Below are positions 22,650-47,793 of a stretch of DNA of 64,000 nucleotides, piece by piece; the first letter of the stretch is position 1; every line of letters starts with the position of its first letter. Origin of the DNA: Escherichia phage T5_ev219. Position numbers and translations under genes: made by a program. The DNA lies in sequence record NC_134263.1. The stretch is one strand, 5' to 3'. The notes beneath the pieces are model-generated. The model was given only the letters and a program-made list of their open reading frames with translations. It was not told the origin of the DNA and ran no database searches.

Positions 22650-24524
22650 ATGAATCGCAATGAAGAACTAAAGTATAAAGAAATGCAGGCGTTAATTAGA
22701 AACTGCAAAGAGATTATCGAAGGGTCAGCAGATGAAGAGCTGCTGTTTAATAATGCCAATAAACCCTCAGAACGTTTCCCTACACAAAGGGATATGCTTG
22801 CAGGTGAATTGAGTAAGTATCTGATTCTAGAAGAAATGCCAATTCAGATTCGAAATGCTCATATGATTGGGGATATTCATTTCCATGATGCTGATTATGC
22901 TGCATTAGGTATGACTAACTGTTGTCTGGTAGCTTTGGAAGATATGTTGAAGAATGGTATGAAGGTTGGTAATGCTGAAATTAGCACTCCAAACTCTATC
23001 ACTACTGCGGCGGCTATTACTGCTCAGATTATCACTCAGGTTAGCTCCCACCAGTATGGTGGTACTTCTGTAGATCGTCTTGATGAAGTATTGGCTCCTT
23101 ATGTTCGTAAGTCTTATGATAAGAATCATGCGTTTGCAAAACGTTGGACTAAGGATGAAGCCAAAGCATCAGTAATGGCTACTGAGATGACTGAAAAAGA
23201 AGTCTATGATGCTTGTCAGGGTCTAGAGTATGAAATCAATACGATGTTCAACTCTAATGGTCAGAGTCCATTTATTACCTTTGGTTTTGGTCTAGGAACT
23301 TCTTGGGAAGCACGTCTAGTACAGAAAGCAATACTGAAAGTACGTATGGATGGTTTAGGTATCAATAAACGTACAGCTATCTTTCCGAAACTGGTGTTTG
23401 TTCTGCGTGATGGCGTAAATATGAAGCCAGGAGATGTTAATTATGACGTCAAGAAGTTAGCTATGAAATGTACTGCTGAACGTATGTATCCAGATTATAT
23501 CAGCTATGATAAGGTTGTGGAAGTTACTGGGGACTATAAAGTTTCTATGGGCTGCCGTTCATTCCTAGCTGCTACAGAAGATGGTGAAACTGCCGGTCGT
23601 AATAACTTAGGTGTTGTTTCTGTAAACTTGCCTAGAATTGCTATCGAAGCTGAAGGAAATATTGACCTATTCTTTGATTTGCTTGAGCTACGTGTAGATA
23701 CAGCATTAAAAGCGTTGGAGTGGAGAGTTGATCGCTTAAAATACATTCAAGCTAAAGCTGCACCCATCCTCTATATGTCAGGAGCCTTTGGGTTACGCTT
23801 GGAGCCTGATGAATATGTATTCGATCATTTCTATAACCGTGCTTCTGTATCTCTAGGGTATATTGGTTGCCATGAAATGCTACAGTTCATGTTTGGCAAA
23901 GATGTAGACACAATGTCCGAGACCTGCATCAAGTTTGTTCAGCGTGTATTGCAGTACATGCGGGATAGAGTCGATCAGAAGAAGGAAGAAACTAAGTTAG
24001 GTTATAGCCTGTATGCTACACCATCAGAATCCCTATGTGATCGTTTTTGTCGTCTAGACCGTGAATATTTCCCGGAGCATGAAGATATTCTGTCTAAAGG
24101 ATACTACACTAACTCGCACCACCTTGATGTAGAACGCAAAGTTGCTCCCAATGTGAAATTTGATTATGAATCTAATTTTACTCCGATTGCTTCTGGTGGG
24201 TGCATTTCCTATGTAGAACTACCAGATATGAAACGATTCCCAGATGCACTGGAATGGGTTATTAATTATGCTGCTAGTAAAGTTCATTACTTCGGTATTA
24301 ATACTCCAGTGGATTCTTGTAGTAAATGTGGATTCTTAGGTGAAACAATAGCATCCGAAGATGGATTTAAGTGCCCTATCTGTGGTAATCATGACCCCGA
24401 AACTCTTGAAGTAACTCGTCGAGTTTGTGGGTATCTTGGAAATCCGGGTGCTCGTCCATTTAACCCCGGCAAACAGCACGAGGTGATGGGCAGAGTGAAA
24501 CATCAGGATATTCGAGCTAAATAA
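22650..24524 (+). CDS. nrdD: anaerobic ribonucleoside-triphosphate reductase (class III)
   Basis: C-terminal Zn site CSKCG...CPICG and glycyl-radical motif RVCGYLG; RBS GAGAAGGAG. Confidence 0.9.
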   Translation: MNRNEELKYKEMQALIRNCKEIIEGSADEELLFNNANKPSERFPTQRDMLAGELSKYLILEEMPIQIRNAHMIGDIHFHDADYAALGMTNCCLVALEDMLKNGMKVGNAEISTPNSITTAAAITAQIITQVSSHQYGGTSVDRLDEVLAPYVRKSYDKNHAFAKRWTKDEAKASVMATEMTEKEVYDACQGLEYEINTMFNSNGQSPFITFGFGLGTSWEARLVQKAILKVRMDGLGINKRTAIFPKLVFVLRDGVNMKPGDVNYDVKKLAMKCTAERMYPDYISYDKVVEVTGDYKVSMGCRSFLAATEDGETAGRNNLGVVSVNLPRIAIEAEGNIDLFFDLLELRVDTALKALEWRVDRLKYIQAKAAPILYMSGAFGLRLEPDEYVFDHFYNRASVSLGYIGCHEMLQFMFGKDVDTMSETCIKFVQRVLQYMRDRVDQKKEETKLGYSLYATPSESLCDRFCRLDREYFPEHEDILSKGYYTNSHHLDVERKVAPNVKFDYESNFTPIASGGCISYVELPDMKRFPDALEWVINYAASKVHYFGINTPVDSCSKCGFLGETIASEDGFKCPICGNHDPETLEVTRRVCGYLGNPGARPFNPGKQHEVMGRVKHQDIRAK

Positions 24525-24566
24525 GCTAATCAGCCGGGTTGCTAGTCGACCTGGCTTTTATTTTAT

Positions 24567-24595
24567 TTGCTTTCAGCCAAAAATTTATATATAAT
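24567..24595 (+). promoter_or_regulatory. sigma70-type early promoter (plus strand class with ATAAATTTGAGAGGAG leader)
   Basis: TTGCTT 24567-24572, 17-bp spacer, TATAAT 24590-24595. Confidence 0.6.
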
Positions 24596-24623
24596 AGATT
24601 TATAAATTTGAGAGGAGAAAGCT

Positions 24624-24905
24624 ATGAGCGAGTTGCTTCCTAAAGTAGATGTCTCCCATCTTGGAGAGCCTAGTGAAGAACGTAAGGCTCTAGATTGGTT
24701 GGGTGGATTTGATTATCGTCGTGTTGTTGCAACATGGAATGTTAAGAAAGTTAAGAAGTTTCGGGTACATTATGTAGGTAAAGACAAGTGGCTCTGGATT
24801 GATTATGAAGAATCAAAGGGGTCTACTAAGGCTGTGAAAATTTATCGTATGTATGGGTATTATTATGCTCACTGTGACAAGAATGAATTTACAGTACAGA
24901 ACTAA
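24624..24905 (+). CDS. hypothetical protein (93 aa)
   Basis: ORF with RBS GAGAGGAGAAAG. Confidence 0.55.
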   Translation: MSELLPKVDVSHLGEPSEERKALDWLGGFDYRRVVATWNVKKVKKFRVHYVGKDKWLWIDYEESKGSTKAVKIYRMYGYYYAHCDKNEFTVQN

Positions 24906-24914
24906 GGAACAAGA

Positions 24915-25118
24915 ATGAAAAACGTAAAACATCTTAAATATCGCTTAATTTACAACGGACGTATGGAAACAGAAGACCTGGCCCAGTTAGCTATTAATTC
25001 TAATGAGGTTACAGTGCGTGCGCTGGCAATTGAAAAGTTGCGTGCTTCTTATGAAAATCGTGTTATGGAACTAGAGGAGAAACTTTATGGACTTCTTGAA
25101 TCAGAATCTAAAAAGTAA
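24915..25118 (+). CDS. hypothetical protein (67 aa)
   Basis: ORF, RBS AAGGAACAAG. Confidence 0.45.
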   Translation: MKNVKHLKYRLIYNGRMETEDLAQLAINSNEVTVRALAIEKLRASYENRVMELEEKLYGLLESESKK

Positions 25119-25281
25119 TCCAGAAAACATACTTATTGAGCAATGGAACTTTGGTTATAATGCTGGTGTAGCTACTTGTATTGCTAGATTGGATATGCTT
25201 ATTAAGCAAGAAAAGGTGCGTCCGGAGGAAGCAATTTTACTCCGAAATATTATCGAAGGATTTAAGCAAGGAATCGTATAG
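25087..25281 (+). CDS. hypothetical protein (64 aa)
   Basis: ORF overlapping neighbours at both ends. Confidence 0.4.
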   Translation: MDFLNQNLKSNPENILIEQWNFGYNAGVATCIARLDMLIKQEKVRPEEAILLRNIIEGFKQGIV

Positions 25282-26105
25282 TGCGTAGATTAATTATTAT
25301 TAGCGGTGCGGGTTTGAGTGTTGAAAGTGGTGTACGAGCTTTTCGTACTGATACTGCTAGTGGTAAAGCATTGTGGGATGATTATGATCTAGAAGAAGTA
25401 TGTAATATTCATGCCTTTCGTGGTAATTTTTACCATAAAACCCATATGTTTTACAACAAGCGACGTGAAGAGCTAGAAACTGTTGAACCTAACCTTGCGC
25501 ATCTTCGTATTGGTGAGTGGTATAAGAAATATCCGGGTCAAGTAGTAAATTTGACTACTAATGTTGATGACCTTATTGAGCGTGCTGGTGTTCCTCATAA
25601 TGATATTCTCCACATTCATGGATACTTAAAGGAGGTTGTTGTAGCTGATAGCTACAATAGTAGTAATAAACGAATTATTGATGTTGGGTATAACTCTATT
25701 GACCCAGATGATTATAAATGGGCTAAACCTAATGTAATCTTCTTTGGTGAGCATGCTCCAGCGTACGCAGAAATGTACAATATTTTTGATGGTATTACTA
25801 GTCAAGATATGATCGTTGTAGTTGGTTGCTCTAATCAAGTAATTAATTTCTACTGGGAATTATTTCCTGTTCTTAATTTGACTGCTGCTAAACTTATGGT
25901 TGTTAACTACTACGATAGTGCCCTAGCGGCAGAACCAGGCTATCAAGGTATGACTCGTAGTGATATGTACCAGTTGGAAGAACGGGGTATTCCTTACTGG
26001 AGTAAAGGTGCGGTAGATGCTTTCAGTGATCCTGGTTTTATCGCTCGTATAGAAGCTCATCTAGAGGGTAGACCTTATATGCAGGGGGAACAGACATGTC
26101 CATAG
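25281..26105 (+). CDS. Sir2 (sirtuin)-like NAD-binding protein, no zinc ribbon
   Basis: ISGAGLSVESGVRAFR (GAGxS.ESG), TTNVDDLIERAG...HIHGY (catalytic His), NVIFFGE, VVVGCSNQV; GTG start overlapping previous stop. Confidence 0.7.
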   Translation: MRRLIIISGAGLSVESGVRAFRTDTASGKALWDDYDLEEVCNIHAFRGNFYHKTHMFYNKRREELETVEPNLAHLRIGEWYKKYPGQVVNLTTNVDDLIERAGVPHNDILHIHGYLKEVVVADSYNSSNKRIIDVGYNSIDPDDYKWAKPNVIFFGEHAPAYAEMYNIFDGITSQDMIVVVGCSNQVINFYWELFPVLNLTAAKLMVVNYYDSALAAEPGYQGMTRSDMYQLEERGIPYWSKGAVDAFSDPGFIARIEAHLEGRPYMQGEQTCP

Positions 26106-26278
26106 TTAAATCTGTGTATACACATCCAGATGATATATTTGTATGGGCGGATGGTAGTTGGTGCTATCGATGTGAGTTATGGGAAATGGACTATAAATCT
26201 GAGGACTATGGTGTCATATATGTTGATACGGTTGAGTATGATACGTTCTTAGAAAGGGACAAAAATGGAAATAAGTAA
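26096..26278 (+). CDS. hypothetical protein (60 aa)
   Basis: ORF. Confidence 0.4.
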   Translation: MSIVKSVYTHPDDIFVWADGSWCYRCELWEMDYKSEDYGVIYVDTVEYDTFLERDKNGNK

Positions 26279-26771
26279 TACTCCAATTATTTTTCTAGAC
26301 ATTGATGGGGTGCTTAATTCTAGCATCTCCCACCATCATGCACCTGATGATGAAAAGATTTTCTTTGGAAGTGACTGGGTTTTTAAACCGCTTCTCAAGG
26401 CTTTTCAGGACTTTATTCGTCCTTCTCCAATAATGATTGTTGGGGTATCTTCATGGTTCTCTGTCAGGAATGAGATGGAGAACGTTCAGATTATGACCGG
26501 ATTAGATCTTATCGATCGTTTTCTTGGTACAACGGATTTTACTGGTGGTGGGCTATCTAGGGGTAATTCTGTTCTTCGCTTCGTTGAAAAGCATAAGCTC
26601 AAACATTGGTGTGTGCTGGATGATGCTGGTGCTATGATGTATCAGTATCCAACGGTTATAGTCAACGGTAGAACCGGAATAAATCTTCAAGATTTAAGAG
26701 CTGTTAGCTATATGTTAGAATTTAGTCCAGATCTTGAAATGTGTAAAGCCCTACAAAAATTTAAGGTGTAA
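26265..26771 (+). CDS. HAD-superfamily hydrolase (possible nucleotidase/phosphatase)
   Basis: N-terminal HAD motif I IIFLDIDGVLN; WCVLDDAG motif. Confidence 0.6.
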   Translation: MEISNTPIIFLDIDGVLNSSISHHHAPDDEKIFFGSDWVFKPLLKAFQDFIRPSPIMIVGVSSWFSVRNEMENVQIMTGLDLIDRFLGTTDFTGGGLSRGNSVLRFVEKHKLKHWCVLDDAGAMMYQYPTVIVNGRTGINLQDLRAVSYMLEFSPDLEMCKALQKFKV

Positions 26772-26773
26772 AT

Positions 26774-27202
26774 ATGTTCAATAATATACTCTCTAAAGAG
26801 GCTAACCCGATATTGGTTAATTTTTGGCGTACTCTTCCAGCCAACCTGTACAATGAGGCTATTAATGATCTGAAAATATGGTGTGAGAATAATGAAATCT
26901 CCTTTGCTTTTAAGGGTGAGATTGAAGAAGCTCCCTGTATTGGTTTAATTGTGCAGGTAGAGGATGGTCTGGAAGAGATTGTCGGCTGGAAAGAGTTGGA
27001 TGAAATGGGGTTGGTTTTTGCATTAAACTATAAGCTATTTATGCCCAATAAACACCGTATTGTTGTTAATTATAAAACCAGTGAATCTCCTGGTTTTCAA
27101 GTTAATGAACACTACGGTTGGTCTTACTCACCGGAAGAAGTAAATGATGGTATCCAAAAACTTCGTCGTTTTGGTTATCAAATTCCCGGTTTAACTGCCT
27201 AA
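26774..27202 (+). CDS. hypothetical protein, paralog A of tandem pair
   Basis: Shares F.F...PC.G...W.EL...GL..ALN..LF.P...Y.P...L.R.G..IPGL pattern with 27212..27604. Confidence 0.55.
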   Translation: MFNNILSKEANPILVNFWRTLPANLYNEAINDLKIWCENNEISFAFKGEIEEAPCIGLIVQVEDGLEEIVGWKELDEMGLVFALNYKLFMPNKHRIVVNYKTSESPGFQVNEHYGWSYSPEEVNDGIQKLRRFGYQIPGLTA

Positions 27203-27211
27203 GGGGGCACA

Positions 27212-27604
27212 ATGGAACAAGTATATTGGCGTCAGATTGATCCTAGTTTGGTGAAGCGTGCTGAGAAGCTGCTACAACGTTGGTTGGGGGTAAGACAAGC
27301 CTCCTTCACTTTTCCGGAGCAGCAAATAGACGATCCCTGTGTTGGTGTTTTTCTATCAGGCTACGCTGGGGAATGGGAATTGGATTGGAATGAATTGTCT
27401 GCTATAGGTCTAATTGTTGCCCTAAATTTCTCTTTGTTCCATCCACGTGGTTTGGCCATATGTCGTGTGCCTGATGACGGTTGTTCGCCCTATCTTTTAC
27501 AGGTGGAAGATGATATTTGGGAGTACACTCCAGATATTCTCAAAGAAGCCAAAGAACAATTAAACCGTGTTGGGATCTATGTTCCGGGGCTAAATGATAA
27601 ATGA
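27212..27604 (+). CDS. hypothetical protein, paralog B of tandem pair
   Basis: See paralog A; RBS AAGGGGG. Confidence 0.55.
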   Translation: MEQVYWRQIDPSLVKRAEKLLQRWLGVRQASFTFPEQQIDDPCVGVFLSGYAGEWELDWNELSAIGLIVALNFSLFHPRGLAICRVPDDGCSPYLLQVEDDIWEYTPDILKEAKEQLNRVGIYVPGLNDK

Positions 27605-27627
27605 TTTTTATTAGTTGACCTCTGATT

Positions 27628-27654
27628 ACCGAGTCATTTTGGCTCGGTTTTCTC
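27628..27654 (+). terminator. rho-independent terminator
   Basis: Hairpin ACCGAG-tcattttgg-CTCGGT followed by TTTTCTC. Confidence 0.65.
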
Positions 27655-27695
27655 TATGCTCAAAGACACTGATAGCACCATCCGGAAAATTTTAC

Positions 27696-27724
27696 TTGCA
27701 GGATGCCCAAAATCTTGATATAAT
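27696..27724 (+). promoter_or_regulatory. sigma70-type promoter preceding a 500-nt ORF-free leader
   Basis: TTGCAG 27696-27701, 17-bp spacer, TATAAT 27719-27724, conserved ATTTATATTGAATTGAGAGA leader. Confidence 0.5.
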
Positions 27725-28221
27725 ATTTATATTGAATTGAGAGACATTAGTAAAAATTGATTTTGCTAATTTTTCTTGTTTACAATCCGCGATACGGAAC
27801 AGTTAGGCTGCCCCATTAAGGGTTGTTTTAACTATTACTAGTGTTTATATTGCATTAGTTAATCTTCAATTAAGTGATCTGTGTACCCTGAATTCGGAAA
27901 GGTAAATCCAAACCGTGCATATTTAGCTCGTTATATAGGCAGAGTTTTATATGGGGGTGCGAACGAAAAGAGCAGCGAATGGCGGCACGTACAGTAGTCA
28001 CCTACCAATAGGATAGTGAGGACAAATAGAATCGGCTTAGCGGCCAATGACCTAGGTTCTATTCTGTATATGAGCGAAGAGAGCACAGCACTGAGATATG
28101 ATAACTTATTCATATTGTTTGATGATAATTGATGTTTACGTAAATAGTAGTAATAGTTGTTCTATTCTTTCTGAATAGTCCTAAAGAAAAGATTTCGATT
28201 AACCAACACAGGAGTATTGTT

Positions 28222-42341: not shown

Positions 42342-43690
42342 AGGTTGTTATATCTAATAAAGCCTATTTCAAGCCAGATGATGAACTTTGGGATTATTGT
42401 AGTAAGCAAACCACTTATCACATAGAGACAATGACTAGTAAATACCCTATTATGTATAAGAATAGTGGTGTTGTTGCCAAAGAGATTAAGTGGATTCCTA
42501 TTACGCGTCTGGACTTACTAGATGCTAAAGGAGTAAAATACGAATTAGTCGATAAACGCACATTAGCACCGGTAGATATACCAAAACCGTCGTTTAAACT
42601 GCGTGAAGAAGATCAGCTTCCAATATATGAAGAATGCGATGATACCTGTATTATTAATGGTAAGCCTGGGTTTGGTAAAACTATCCTAGCACTTGCACTT
42701 GCGTATAAATTTGGTCAGAAAACTTTGGTAATCTGTACGAATACATCCATTCGTGAAATGTGGGCGGCAGAAGTTCGTAAATGGTTTGGGTTTGAACCAG
42801 GCATCATAGGTTCTGGGAAATACAATATTGATCCACCAATTGTAGTCAGTAATATTCAAACAGTGAATAAACATGCGAATAATCTTTCTAAAGTATTCGG
42901 TACTGTTATAGTTGATGAAGTTCACCATTGTGTGGCTACAACTTTCACTAACTTCCTAGAAATATCATGTGCTCGCTATAAAATTGGACTATCTGGTACA
43001 CTAAAACGAAAAGATGGTTTACAAGTTATGTTCAAAGATTTCTTTGGATATAAGATATTTAGCCCACCGGTTAATAATACTGTTGCACCTACAATCCATA
43101 GGTACTCCGTGCCTGTTGAGCTATCAGGAAACCAAAACGTACCGTGGGCATTACGTGCTAATGATGTGTATAACCATCCTGAATATCGAGAGACTATTAT
43201 AAACCTAGCACATTTATATGTGAATATGGGACATAAGGTAATCATTGTAAGTGATAGAACAGAGTTAATCCAAACAGTACTAGAAGCTCTTACACAGCGT
43301 GGTGTTACAACCTATGAAATTATAGGAGCAACCCACTTAGATGACCGATTAAAAATTCAGGAAGATATAGCAAAAGGTGGACCTTGTGTACTTGCAGCAG
43401 CTCAAAGTATCTTCTCTGAAGGTATTTCCCTTAATGAGCTGTCTTGTTTAATAATGGGAAGCCTCATTAATAATGAATCTCTCATTGAACAGCTTGCAGG
43501 CCGTGTTCAACGTATTGTCGAGGGCAAACTCGACCCTATTGTTGTAGATCTAATCATGAAAGGTGGCACTGGACTAAGACAGGCTTCTGGACGTATGGCA
43601 GTATATCGTAACAACGGGTGGAAAACTATTACTATGACTCCGGAGAAAGCAGTTCAATTAGCTAAAATTGCATTTGGCAACAGCTCATAA
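42338..43690 (+). CDS. SF2 DNA helicase (DEAH-type)
   Basis: Walker A GKPGFGKT, Walker B DEVHH, motif VI QLAGRVQR. Confidence 0.8.
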   Translation: MKVVISNKAYFKPDDELWDYCSKQTTYHIETMTSKYPIMYKNSGVVAKEIKWIPITRLDLLDAKGVKYELVDKRTLAPVDIPKPSFKLREEDQLPIYEECDDTCIINGKPGFGKTILALALAYKFGQKTLVICTNTSIREMWAAEVRKWFGFEPGIIGSGKYNIDPPIVVSNIQTVNKHANNLSKVFGTVIVDEVHHCVATTFTNFLEISCARYKIGLSGTLKRKDGLQVMFKDFFGYKIFSPPVNNTVAPTIHRYSVPVELSGNQNVPWALRANDVYNHPEYRETIINLAHLYVNMGHKVIIVSDRTELIQTVLEALTQRGVTTYEIIGATHLDDRLKIQEDIAKGGPCVLAAAQSIFSEGISLNELSCLIMGSLINNESLIEQLAGRVQRIVEGKLDPIVVDLIMKGGTGLRQASGRMAVYRNNGWKTITMTPEKAVQLAKIAFGNSS

Positions 43691-43702
43691 ATGATGTATA
43701 AT
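43674..43702 (+). promoter_or_regulatory. sigma70-type promoter inside helicase 3-prime end
   Basis: TTGGCA 43674-43679, 17-bp spacer, TATAAT 43697-43702, conserved leader ATAAATTTGAGAGAG. Confidence 0.5.
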
Positions 43703-43773
43703 ATATACATAAATTTGAGAGAGAAAGTTTCGGATTGATAAGAAAGTCCGAAGCAGAAAAATAAAAATTTTAG

Positions 43774-43803
43774 TTGCTAAATTCTCTCGAAATCTAGTAT
43801 AAT
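43774..43803 (+). promoter_or_regulatory. sigma70-type early promoter
   Basis: TTGCTA 43774-43779, 18-bp spacer, TATAAT 43798-43803. Confidence 0.55.
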
Positions 43804-43910
43804 ATATACATAAATTCGAGGAGAAAACAAAAATTAAATTCTTCGATTATGAAAAGCTATACTTACTAGCTAGAGGAAATTCCGACCTAATTATTAAGCT
43901 ATTCAAAAGA

Positions 43911-44195
43911 ATGCTTACAGAGCCTGATGCTCACCAATTATTGGTCGGTTCCTCATTCATTTTGAATGAATCAACAATAGTTGATAATCCAAATAAATTG
44001 TCTAATAGACAACTGGCAGAATATCTAGGAATTTTAAGTCTACGAAATTATGCCGAATACAAGTTTACAAACGATCCTAGTTTGGACATACAATATGTTC
44101 CAGTATGGATACCACGTTTAGTAATCGACACTAACCCACTAATCGCAATTAACAAATCGAAATTAATCTTTAAAGAGGAAATAAAATATGGCTAA
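43911..44195 (+). CDS. hypothetical protein (94 aa)
   Basis: ORF; weak RBS. Confidence 0.4.
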   Translation: MLTEPDAHQLLVGSSFILNESTIVDNPNKLSNRQLAEYLGILSLRNYAEYKFTNDPSLDIQYVPVWIPRLVIDTNPLIAINKSKLIFKEEIKYG

Positions 44196-44961
44196 GTCTT
44201 GGGGCGAAACTACTGGCGGTTCTAACGATAAAATCGAATTCCTGAAGTTCAACAACGGTATCACTCGTGTTCGTATCGTTTCTGGTGTTCTTCCACGTTA
44301 TGTCTATTGGCTGACTAATAAAGAGGGTAGCGTAGCTCCTTTCGAATGTCTCCGTTTTAACCGCGACAAAGAGAGCTTTGTTCGTGGTAAAGCTGACCCG
44401 GTTCATGAGATGGGCTTCTTTGAGAAAGAGCTGGATAAAGATGGCAATCGTGTTCCGCTGAAACCGAAGAAAAACTATATCGCTTTTGTTATCGACCGTT
44501 CTGATAACAAACTGAAAGTAATGGAAGTCAAAGCTACTATTCTGAAAGGCATCCAGTCTATCATGAAGCAGTTGAATCTGGCAACTCCGTTTGATATTGA
44601 TATTTCTATCGAGAAAAAAGGCAAAGGTTTCGATACTGAGTATGATGTACAGCAGATTGCTGCTATGCAGTTCCAGATTAAGCTGCAAGATCCTAACAGT
44701 GCGGAATCTAAGCAATATGCTGCGGATGTAGATCTGATTGGTGAAGCTATGTGTGACGAAGATGGCGACATCATTAAGTTCGAGAAAGTTCCTTCTCTGG
44801 AACAAACCTATCCAGTTCCTACCTATGAAGAGCAGAAAGAAGCAATTCAAGCCTTCATGGAAGGTCGTGAGAATAAAGATGATGATGCCAAATCTGGTAA
44901 CAGCAATGCTGGTTCCCAGAAAGGTATTGACTCAGAAGCTGCAAGCGATCTGGACGACTAA
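44188..44961 (+). CDS. putative single-stranded DNA-binding protein (acidic C-terminal tail)
   Basis: Position within replication module, highly optimised codons, C-terminal DSEAASDLDD tail typical of phage SSBs; no motif-level proof. Confidence 0.4.
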   Translation: MAKSWGETTGGSNDKIEFLKFNNGITRVRIVSGVLPRYVYWLTNKEGSVAPFECLRFNRDKESFVRGKADPVHEMGFFEKELDKDGNRVPLKPKKNYIAFVIDRSDNKLKVMEVKATILKGIQSIMKQLNLATPFDIDISIEKKGKGFDTEYDVQQIAAMQFQIKLQDPNSAESKQYAADVDLIGEAMCDEDGDIIKFEKVPSLEQTYPVPTYEEQKEAIQAFMEGRENKDDDAKSGNSNAGSQKGIDSEAASDLDD

Positions 44962-44967
44962 TAAATA

Positions 44968-44992
44968 GAGGGGCTTCGGCCCCTTTCTTTTT
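44968..44992 (+). terminator. rho-independent terminator
   Basis: Hairpin GAGGGGC-ttcg-GCCCCT followed by TTCTTTTT. Confidence 0.7.
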
Positions 44993-44997
44993 AACCA

Positions 44998-45974
44998 ATG
45001 AGAATATTATTTAGTGCTGATCATCATATCAAACTAGGACAAGATAAAGTTCCAAAGGAATGGCAGAAGCGTCGTTTCCTGATGCTAGGAGAACGGTTAA
45101 ATGATATATTCCATAATCATAACTGTGATCTTCATATTGCTGGTGGTGATATTCTTGATGTTGCCGACCCGTCGTCAGAAGAAATAGAACTGCTTGAACA
45201 GTTCATGTCAAGACTTGACCACCCAGGTAAAATCTTTACTGGAAATCATGAAATGTTAACTAAAACGATTTCATGTCTATATCATTATGCAGGAGTTATA
45301 ATAAGGTAACGAGTGGTAAGTGGGAAGTAATTACCAAACCATATCGTTCCCCTGAATTTGATATTGTTCCGTATGATGAGATCCATAAATCCAAATGGAA
45401 ACCGTCTGAATCAAAACTATGTTTCACGCATGTTCGTGGTGAAATCCCTCCACATGTAAAACCAGAAATTGATCTAACTAAGTATAACTGTTATGATACT
45501 GTAATTGCTGGCGATTTACATTCTTATACTAATAGCCAGACTATCGGATCTACTAGACTTCTCTACCCAGGGTCTCCATTAACTACAACGTTCCATAGAG
45601 AACGCACAAAAGGTACAAATGGTTGCTTTATCGTTGATACCGACACATTAAAAGTAGAATGGATTGAACTAGGTGATTTACCACAACTGATTCGTAAAAC
45701 AATCGGAGCCGGTGAAGAGATGGAACCTAGTGATTATGATCGTGTAGTCTATGAAGTTACTGGTGACGTTGTTCAATTAAAGTCTATCAAAGACTCTGAT
45801 TTATTAGATAAGAAGATTAACCATCGAGTTACTAAAGACGCTAAGTTAAATCTTGTTGATCTTGATATGTTAGGTGAACTTGAACTTTACTTCCGTGAAG
45901 TCGAGAAGCTATCTCAAGGCGACATTGATAGAATCTTGGCTAGAGCTGCGAAATATGTCAAAGATTACAATTAA
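44998..45974 (+). pseudogene. SbcD/Mre11-like nuclease split across two frames (possible frameshift)
   Basis: Frame 1 (44998..45309) carries phosphoesterase motifs I-III (DHH, GGDILD, GNHE); frame 0 (45273..45974) carries downstream HVRGE and GDLH motifs; frames switch near 45260-45310. Confidence 0.55.
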
Positions 45975-47793
45975 GACACTAAAATTTAGTAACGTTATGT
46001 CTTACGGTAAGGACATCGTAATTCATTTCGATAAGAATCCAGTTACTCAACTAATTGGTGGCAATGGGCTGGGGAAATCCACCATCGCTACGGTTATCGA
46101 GGAATTGTTTTATAACAAGAACTCACGTGGTATTAAGAAGGATGCTCTGTTCTCCTGGTCTACTCCGAAAAAAGAGTATGATATGCACGCTTACTTCTCA
46201 AAAGATGAAGATGAGTATGAATTGCATAAAGTAGTTAAATCCACTGCTAAAGTAACCCTTATTAAGAATGGAGAGGATATTAGTGGACACACGGCAACCC
46301 AAACATACAAGATGATTGAAGAGATTATGGGTGGTGACTTCCAAACATTCACCAAACTGATTTATCAATCGGTGGGTTCCAATCTAGATTTTCTAAAGGC
46401 AACGGATGCAACACGTAAGGCTTTTCTTGTTAACTTGTTCAATCAAGAACAGTACAAAGAAATGTCAGAAACTATTAAGGCTGATCGTAAAGAAATAGCA
46501 AATACCTTAAATAATTTGCAGGGCCAAATGGCTGTAATTACGAAAATCCTTAATGGAAAGAATAATCTGGGAACTTTGCAGGAACCTGTAGAAGTACCGG
46601 AGTTTGATGAAGAGCCATTAGCACAAGAACTTACTGAATCGAAAATTAAGGCGGCATTAGCCAAGTCTCAAGAGGCTAATATTACTAAATTGCGTAATTT
46701 GGACAAAGCTGTACAAGTTGCCGAACAATCTTTCGAACCTTTCAAAAATTTACCCGCGCCCACCGACCAAAATGAAGAGATCTCGAGTGTTACGCGTGAC
46801 CTAACGATTGTGACCTCACGTGCGGGCGAAGTTAAGAAACGTTATCAGAAGTTCAAGCAAGAGGCTTCAAATACTGAATGCCCTACTTGTGGTACTCATC
46901 TAGATACAACTGCTGCTCAAAAAGCAATGGATATGGCTAGAATAGAATATGATCCTTTGTTCAACGAGAAGCAATCTCTTGAAGCTAAGCTAGAACAGTT
47001 GAAGAAAGAACAACTTGAGTACGTTGCGTATACTAGAGCAAAGGATGCTTTGGATAAAGCAGTGGTAGCTAGAGACGAGTTCAAAAATTCAATGAGTGAT
47101 GCTTCTTTTGAAGAACTCAATGTGCAAATCCTACAGGTGCAAATCCGACAATTAGAACAGGAAATCGCTGATGGCCGCTCTAAGGTTGCAATTGCTAAAG
47201 AGCATAATGCAAATGTCGAATTAGCCAATGCAAAATATAAAGCGAAACTAGAACAGATTGAGAAAGCTGAGGCAGAAATGTCTGAGATTACTTCCAAACT
47301 GGATGAGGTATCAGAAGCTGTTGCTGATCTCGATATTCTGATTGCTGCTTTGAAAAATCTGGTGGGATATAAACTAGAGCATAGTGTGAAAGTATTTGAA
47401 GAACTAATTAATAAATACCTTTCTATTATGACTGGTGGTAAATTTGCACTTGGATTTGAACTTGATGAAACAAAATTACAAGTAGTAATCTTCAATGATG
47501 GAAACCGTACCAGTATGGAGAATTGCTCTACTGGTCAGCAAAGTCGAATCAACCTAGCAACTCTGTTAGCTATTCGAATGCTACTAACATCTATTAGTAA
47601 AGTTAATATTAATCTTCTATTCCTTGATGAAGTAATTAGCTTTATTGATACAAAAGGACTTGATACTCTAGTTGAATTATTAAATGAGGAAGAAAGCCTA
47701 AATTCTATCATTGTTTCTCACGGGCATACGCATCCATTAGCCCATAAGATTACTGTTAAAAAAGATGCAGAAGGATTTTCCTACTTAGAATAA
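45955..47793 (+). CDS. SbcC/Rad50-like ATPase
   Basis: Walker A GGNGLGKST, long coiled coil, zinc hook CPTCG, Walker B LLFLDEV; start at MSKITIKT. Confidence 0.8.
   Translation: MSKITIKTLKFSNVMSYGKDIVIHFDKNPVTQLIGGNGLGKSTIATVIEELFYNKNSRGIKKDALFSWSTPKKEYDMHAYFSKDEDEYELHKVVKSTAKVTLIKNGEDISGHTATQTYKMIEEIMGGDFQTFTKLIYQSVGSNLDFLKATDATRKAFLVNLFNQEQYKEMSETIKADRKEIANTLNNLQGQMAVITKILNGKNNLGTLQEPVEVPEFDEEPLAQELTESKIKAALAKSQEANITKLRNLDKAVQVAEQSFEPFKNLPAPTDQNEEISSVTRDLTIVTSRAGEVKKRYQKFKQEASNTECPTCGTHLDTTAAQKAMDMARIEYDPLFNEKQSLEAKLEQLKKEQLEYVAYTRAKDALDKAVVARDEFKNSMSDASFEELNVQILQVQIRQLEQEIADGRSKVAIAKEHNANVELANAKYKAKLEQIEKAEAEMSEITSKLDEVSEAVADLDILIAALKNLVGYKLEHSVKVFEELINKYLSIMTGGKFALGFELDETKLQVVIFNDGNRTSMENCSTGQQSRINLATLLAIRMLLTSISKVNINLLFLDEVISFIDTKGLDTLVELLNEEESLNSIIVSHGHTHPLAHKITVKKDAEGFSYLE

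Follow-up and report, generated by a model that had tools for sequence, protein, structure and literature searches.

Paralogous DUF7415 genes of T5-like phages as a tandem pair of predicted two-unit proteins

The window analyzed here is the whole stretch of 64,000 nucleotides from Escherichia phage T5_ev219 (sequence record NC_134263.1), read on one strand from 5' to 3'. Two adjacent open reading frames, encoding proteins of 142 and 130 aa, were found on the same strand exactly where an earlier note, made from the sequence alone, had placed them (Table 1). The two are separated by 9 nt, and Shine-Dalgarno-like sequences lie upstream of both, AAGGTG at 26763-26768 for the 142-aa ORF and GGGGG at 27203-27207 for the 130-aa ORF. 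Both predicted proteins are acidic, with pI values of 4.7 and 4.5, respectively, and a net charge of about -8 in each case. The window derives from a T5-like phage; the region is about 97-98% identical in DNA sequence to T5 and to Escherichia phage EC100, is matched by 524 phage records, and encodes a pair of proteins 90-100% identical to those of T5-like relatives. The corresponding genes of the T5 reference genome, T5.106 and T5.107, are both annotated as hypothetical.

Table 1. Positions in the window of the gene pair, its DUF7415 units, and the surrounding putative transcription unit
Feature	Position	Strand	Evidence or remark
Terminator-like hairpin after nrdD	24532-24556		Precedes the eight-gene unit
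Unit upstream of the pair, six genes	24560-26771	+	ORFs, Pfam, terminators; T5 promoter and terminator annotation
Small ORF	24624-24905	+	
Small ORF	24915-25118	+	
Small ORF	25087-25281	+	
Sir2-like gene	25281-26105	+	Pfam SIR2, E=9e-24
60-aa ORF	26096-26278	+	
HAD_SAK_2 phosphatase-like gene, 168 aa, T5.105 ortholog	26265-26771	+	Pfam, E=1.8e-20
Upstream paralog, 142 aa	26774-27202	+	ORF; ortholog of T5.106 (YP_006934)
N-terminal DUF7415 unit of 142-aa protein	26807-26968, about residues 12-65	+	N-half 64.4 bits on PF24187
C-terminal DUF7415 unit of 142-aa protein	26975-27148, about residues 68-125	+	C-half 53.0 bits on PF24187
Downstream paralog, 130 aa	27212-27604	+	ORF; ortholog of T5.107 (YP_006935)
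N-terminal DUF7415 unit of 130-aa protein	27218-27373, residues 3-54	+	N-half 59.8 bits on PF24187
Canonical C-terminal DUF7415 unit of 130-aa protein	27377-27568, residues 56-119	+	C-half 50.2 bits on PF24187
Terminator-like hairpin, 9-bp stem and T-run	27628-27658	+	Ends the unit; hairpin at 27628-27648; matches annotated terminators in T5 records

The pair forms the last two genes of a putative eight-gene unit with terminator-like hairpins at both borders. The small ORFs of this unit (93, 67, 64, and 60 aa) had no match in Pfam or NCBIfam. The 60-aa ORF is nonetheless probably a real gene, since its pN/pS of 0.07 over 17 sequences is that of a gene under purifying selection. RefSeq NC_005859 calls T5.105 "Sir2 (NAD-dependent deacetylase)" although the protein is a member of HAD_SAK_2, and the name looks like one carried over from the true Sir2-like gene two ORFs upstream. 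The nrdD ORF that precedes the unit (22650-24524) is listed in the window with 624 aa versus the 574 aa annotated for T5.099, a difference probably due to start-codon choice. On the other side of the pair, an unusually long AT-rich non-coding gap of 617 bp (27605-28221) precedes the gene for the origin-binding protein. Within it lie several imperfect direct repeats and an 18-nt inverted repeat (27830-27847 and 28141-28158), the arms of which are 89% complementary and separated by 293 nt.

The 142-aa and 130-aa proteins were aligned collinearly over nearly their full length by BLASTP; of 124 aligned residues, 31% were identical and 48% positive (E=5e-19). The Smith-Waterman score of the pair was 155, compared to 28.1 +/- 4.7 in 1000 shuffles with a maximum of 50 (z=27), and the tandem paralogy proposed in the earlier note is thus borne out by an alignment far above random. 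A third copy was not found anywhere within the 64-kb window. The motif pattern said to be shared by the two proteins held in part. The elements F.F, PC.G, W.EL...GL..ALN..LF.P, and PGL are present in both and in the same order, but the pattern read as a literal regular expression matches neither, as its D is confined to the 130-aa protein and its IPGL to the 142-aa protein, with VPGL standing at this point in the 130-aa protein.

Both proteins could be assigned to an existing family. Searched as whole proteins against Pfam DUF7415 (PF24187, gathering cut-off 27 bits), the 142-aa protein scored 113.4 bits and the 130-aa protein 105.7 bits, each with two stretches matched to a profile 53 positions in length. 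Each also matched phrog_2502, a profile of 134 positions representing the two-unit type of the Demerecviridae, over its full length (E=7.9e-62 for residues 11-142 of the 142-aa protein, E=3.3e-60 for residues 1-129 of the 130-aa protein). The standalone type, phrog_3954, matched residues 56-119 of the 130-aa protein with E=4e-18 and the 142-aa protein with E=8e-4. NCBIfam and PADLOC returned no assignment for the pair. Pfam and PHROGs therefore already list the genes and their family, which do not represent a new system; T5.106 and T5.107 are direct orthologs of the window genes, DUF7415 and PHROG 2502 are their families, and there is no functional difference to be drawn between them. A literature search that included the HIDEN-SEQ preprint revealed nothing relevant to DUF7415, T5.106/T5.107, or orf91. 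As far as we found, neither the presence of two units in each protein nor the asymmetric decay of the upstream copy, both set out below, has an earlier description.

Although the majority of ortholog records are labeled hypothetical, some in GenBank and UniRef carry the names "Phage exonuclease (ACLAME 70)", "exonuclease", or "tail tube protein". Were these names correct, a nuclease or tail family might be expected among the assignments of the pair, yet searches of Pfam, NCBIfam, and PHROGs gave none, and neither nucleases nor tail tube proteins gave a structural match to models of the pair. The genes also sit in an early region of replication and nucleotide metabolism, between nrdD/Sir2 and the gene for the origin-binding protein. 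The names are without support and effectively refuted, and we give almost no credence to either. Two other labels were encountered in public records: the 52-aa T5.097 is entered as "tail length tape measure protein", and the DUF7415 position in Klebsiella phage Roth22, a T4-like homolog record, is labeled "anti-CBASS protein acb1".

When the halves of the two proteins were scored separately on PF24187, each exceeded the cut-off by itself (Table 1), the N-half of the 130-aa protein spanning profile positions 1-53 of 53. An HMM of the N-unit built here gave 72.9 bits over residues 12-65 of the 142-aa protein, from whose N-unit the canonical polar motif is absent. The C-unit of the 130-aa protein reads DWNELS..GL..ALN..LFHPRGLA...DDGCSP...W.Y, followed by a C-terminal helix, and carries the canonical signature DWN..S.GL...N...HPxG....P.TG.S...W.Y. 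The C-unit of the 142-aa protein carries the signature only partly and is degenerate, in that W, N, S, and W.Y are kept while FMPNKH replaces the family [IVLF][LMF]HPxG, with loss of the H and G. An HMM of the standalone unit accordingly distinguished the two, at 65.3 bits for the 130-aa C-unit versus 26.8 bits for the 142-aa C-unit.

AF2 models of both proteins were confident (pLDDT 94.9 and pTM 0.88 for the 130-aa protein, pLDDT 88.5 and pTM 0.83 for the 142-aa protein). Both run through the order strand-helix-strand-strand twice and then end in a C-terminal helix; in the 130-aa model the elements of the N-unit are E2-4, H11-25, E29-33, and E45-49. The models had no relative among solved structures and no match to known nucleotide-binding or enzyme folds, and their BFVD matches were exclusively to members of the DUF7415 family. 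In profile comparisons with hhalign, the C-unit aligned to the standalone unit with E=2e-27. The N-unit was collinear with the standalone-unit profile over 47 columns, a weak match (E=5e-4, probability 32%), and a first comparison of N-halves with C-halves, using small alignments made here, found no repeat. The pair locus thus consists of four DUF7415 units, two per protein, with the homology of the N-units likely. We consider it probable that the N-unit and C-unit arose by internal duplication, mainly on the strength of the Pfam scores of the separate halves and the repeated topology in the models.

Comparison with other Demerecviridae revealed both paired and single forms of the two-unit gene. 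The Klebsiella phages of the genus Sugarlandvirus have the same tandem pair, with an upstream copy too divergent for detection by tblastn; this copy is a DUF7415 gene and not a HAD gene, and the locus is accordingly not a single-copy one. One two-unit gene, whose C-unit is canonical, is present in each of Serratia phage Slocum and Pectobacterium phage DU_PP_V. The order Sir2-like gene, one or two DUF7415 genes, terminator, and origin-binding protein gene is kept in four genera of the Demerecviridae, and the Sir2-like gene is found immediately upstream of DUF7415 in T5-like phages, Sugarlandvirus, Slocum, and Hongcheonvirus. The nrdD and HAD genes are variable at this location; Slocum lacks nrdD in the region, and the HAD gene is found in the T5-likes only.

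In a crude NJ tree, the upstream genes grouped together, as did the downstream genes. The upstream copies have lost HPxG, having FMPNKH in the window and LLRESY in Sugarlandvirus, and on the standalone-unit HMM they scored 26.8 bits or nothing, versus 65.3 and 50.5 bits in the downstream copies. These sequence comparisons show an asymmetric decay, in which the downstream copy keeps the canonical C-unit and that of the upstream copy has decayed. The duplication is old and followed by divergence, as the earlier note had said, the pair being common to the T5-likes and Sugarlandvirus. Judging from the crude tree and the shared gene order, the duplication would have taken place before Tequintavirus and Sugarlandvirus diverged.

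Selection on the pair was examined at the whole-gene level over 24 T5-like loci and the window. Pooled pN/pS was 0.099 (142-aa gene) and 0.109 (130-aa gene), with a maximum pairwise value of 0.34. The comparators gave 0.099 (Sir2), 0.062 (HAD), and 0.113 (origin-binding protein). These values indicate strong purifying selection on both copies, with no sign of diversifying selection at the whole-gene level. The earlier note had likened the pair to anti-defence or host-interaction genes under diversifying selection, an expectation that finds no support in ratios like those of the neighbor genes, and the variation in copy number it had raised was absent among the 24 close relatives, every locus of which has both genes. 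An anti-defence or host-takeover role could still be conceived in a form that does without diversifying selection, the proteins being small acidic inhibitors of host immunity or of a housekeeping protein, with a second copy making the inhibition broader or stronger. We regard this role as rather unlikely. Among the closest known systems are counted small acidic inhibitors made by phages, such as the anti-CRISPR AcrIC4 (PDB 8dfo_M).

The wider family was collected with HMMER from 1.84 billion representatives, searched exhaustively; 193 clusters were returned at E<=1e-3. The majority of these representatives are single-unit proteins of 60-110 aa with the signature K.IDWN..S.LGLI..IN.E[IV]LHPLGLA..RDPETG.S...W.Y, in which N, G, and S are invariant and H-P nearly so. 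Acidity is family-wide, the two-unit representatives having a pI of 4.2-4.9 and 84% of the short members a pI <6. A scan of 185,579 species genomes located 22 DUF7415 loci, all but one of them in P2-like prophages of Gammaproteobacteria; since the BFVD matches were also family members throughout, DUF7415 is shown to be phage-restricted. The standalone proteins of T4-like and P2-like phages (phrog_3954; for example JD18 gp054, RB16p170, and PX29 gp182) share the canonical unit with the C-unit of the 130-aa protein and are likewise acidic and phage-restricted. They differ from the T5 proteins in having one unit instead of two, in some cases fused to other domains, and their genes have neighborhoods unlike that of the T5 pair, namely nrdD/nrdG, nudE, rnlA, P2 gpA, and P2 gpL.

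Among the T4-like phages, the 72-aa DUF7415 gene of Klebsiella phage JD18 (Jiaodavirus; locus L003, 3995-4213) shares 14 nt with the end of nrdD and 29 nt with the start of nrdG, and translation of nrdD, DUF7415, and nrdG may therefore be coupled. A functional link to anaerobic ribonucleotide reductase, to which this arrangement might point, was weakened by the finding that the nrdD-nrdG slot of T4 (within locus L136, T4 42446-46385) is occupied by the homing endonuclease gene mobC; in T4-like phages the slot is variable and recurrently receives accessory genes. No DUF7415 homolog was found in the 140 kb of the 169-kb T4 genome that were scanned. The gene lies two genes after nudE in RB16 (Pseudotevenvirus), and in Aeromonas phage PX29 it follows rnlA and has td, HAD_SAK_2, and DUF4326 nearby. 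The HAD_SAK_2 homolog of PX29 is four genes upstream of the DUF7415 gene (locus L005, 1661-2164). The context in Vibrio phage nt-1 was uninformative.

In 80 IMG/VR loci, the commonest neighbor was the P2 replication initiator gpA, within two genes of DUF7415 in 39 of the 80, directly upstream in 14, and directly downstream in another 14, although these adjacencies come largely from one phage lineage and represent few independent events. At other loci, including Pseudomonas P2-like prophages, the DUF7415 gene is located in the late region, between the head-completion gene gpL and the lysis genes. Upstream of gpA in P2-like prophages, DUF5405, DUF7415, and a C-terminal domain Y are encoded as three genes in one locus (L070, 3693-4704), as a DUF5405-DUF7415 fusion in a second (L030, 3701-4174), and as a DUF7415-Y fusion in a third (L018, 4001-4399), in the manner of Rosetta-stone-like shuffling; the DUF7415 protein of L070 carries a Lar-like zinc ribbon as well. 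What seemed to be three tandem DUF7415 genes in the P2-like loci L067, L069, and L070, and two in L040, proved to be artefacts of single-linkage clustering, caused by fusion proteins, together with one spurious high-GC ORF.

DUF7415 is also found fused to enzymes of nucleotide metabolism, to dTMP kinase in P0090 and to the dATP/dGTP pyrophosphohydrolase PF04447 in P0166 and P0169. In P0167 it is fused to DUF3850/ASCH, which is in addition encoded as a separate neighbor gene in five loci. Further partners are a Lar-type zinc ribbon (at threshold), HTH_37, a coiled coil, and DUF5405, which P2 encodes directly ahead of its gene A. A "MazG-like" N-terminus noted by eye in the 185-aa P2-like form was not retained, as it was unconfirmed by Pfam, NCBIfam, a PDB sequence search, or BLASTP against a PF04447 protein. 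Several fusions with differing N-terminal domains have a near-identical junction, IGGC.WLDWN, which indicates module shuffling. Such promiscuous fusion is typical of an adaptor or oligomerisation module.

The same contexts can be read in favor of a domain that binds a small molecule (nucleotide, NAD, or ADP-ribose) or has a regulatory role, in which case the T5 pair would sense or sequester a nucleotide in early infection. The dTMP kinase and PF04447 fusions, the ASCH/DUF3850 domain as both partner and neighbor, and the genes adjoining DUF7415 in JD18 (nrdD, nrdG), RB16 (nudE), and PX29 (td, HAD_SAK_2, DUF4326, rnlA) would all suit such a domain, as would the Sir2-like gene that always precedes DUF7415 in the Demerecviridae. 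So would the invariant N and S and near-invariant H of the canonical unit, which the non-canonical N-unit is without. On the other hand, a net charge of about -8 is unfavorable for binding an anionic nucleotide, and in fold the models resembled none of the known nucleotide-binding domains. The neighborhoods are moreover heterogeneous, the T4 slot between nrdD and nrdG is a hot spot for insertion, and many fusion partners (HTH_37, Lar-like, DUF5405, coiled coil) are unrelated to nucleotides. We think it improbable, at about the level of the inhibitor role considered above, that DUF7415 acts in this way.

The polar residues of the canonical unit could equally mark a ligand-binding or a catalytic site. 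An enzyme with a catalytic N/H/S/D constellation at a dimer interface would account for the invariant N and S, the near-invariant H-P-x-G, and the acidic DPxTG loop, and the loss of H and G from the upstream paralog follows the pattern of active/inactive enzyme pairs. A unit of 55 residues is very small for an enzyme, however, the models match no enzyme fold, no metal- or cofactor-binding signature is present, and G, P, N, and S/T are just as typical of structural turns and helix caps. We hold catalysis to be quite improbable.

The account that we prefer starts from a basic unit of about 55 residues with the order strand-helix-strand-strand, which forms the standalone acidic proteins of 60-110 aa in T4-like and P2-like phages. 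In the Demerecviridae two units are fused in a single chain, and the N-unit, a likely homolog, has lost the conserved polar motif. The two-unit gene would then have been duplicated in tandem; the canonical unit of the upstream copy has decayed, and both copies are under strong purifying selection. The standalone unit would work as a homodimer, and the T5 proteins would be single-chain pseudo-dimers that may act together as a heteromer of canonical and degenerate partners. The module itself would be a small acidic protein-binding adaptor or inhibitor, neither an enzyme nor a nucleic-acid binder, and its conserved face (N, HPxG, DPxTGxS, WxY) would contact a protein, of phage or host, with a part in replication or in the handling of nucleotides. 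Expression of the T5 pair would come from the early Sir2-containing operon that directly precedes the gene for the origin-binding protein.

Two general patterns offer parallels for this proposal. Single-chain pseudo-dimers arise where a dimer-forming unit is fused and one half decays, and canonical/degenerate paralog pairs arise where a gene is duplicated and the canonical site decays in one copy with both remaining under purifying selection; for the window genes we infer the dimerization in the first case and the heteromer in the second. We counted in favor of the adaptor or inhibitor module its recurrent placement beside replication genes, these being P2 gpA and the gene for the origin-binding protein. 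The mechanistic part, a dimer-forming acidic protein-binding adaptor or inhibitor present in T5 as pseudo-dimers and perhaps as a canonical-degenerate heteromer, is offered tentatively and is by itself doubtful. The explanation as a whole, which joins the T5.106/T5.107 DUF7415 pair, the fused units, the old tandem duplication, and the adaptor or inhibitor module, seems to us about evenly poised between right and wrong. The most far-reaching version of it, which we consider a long shot, is that a phage-specific, dimer-forming module with a new fold is directed against a conserved protein of replication or nucleotide handling or against a nucleotide-based immune component, that T5 employs it as an obligate heteromer of canonical and degenerate proteins, and that such early proteins form a new class, active in host takeover or counter-defence and common to T5-like, T4-like, and P2-like phages.

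The pair belongs to a conserved "dark matter" family and not to a fast-evolving one. DUF7415 spans three major groups of enterobacterial phages and includes fusions to enzymes of nucleotide metabolism. The T5 proteins make a reasonable small experimental target, as they have confident models without solved relatives and a clean history that leads from a unit to a fused pseudo-dimer and on to a tandem pair with one copy decayed. A binding partner, if found, would in a single step suggest what several hundred phage genes do, by assigning them a function.
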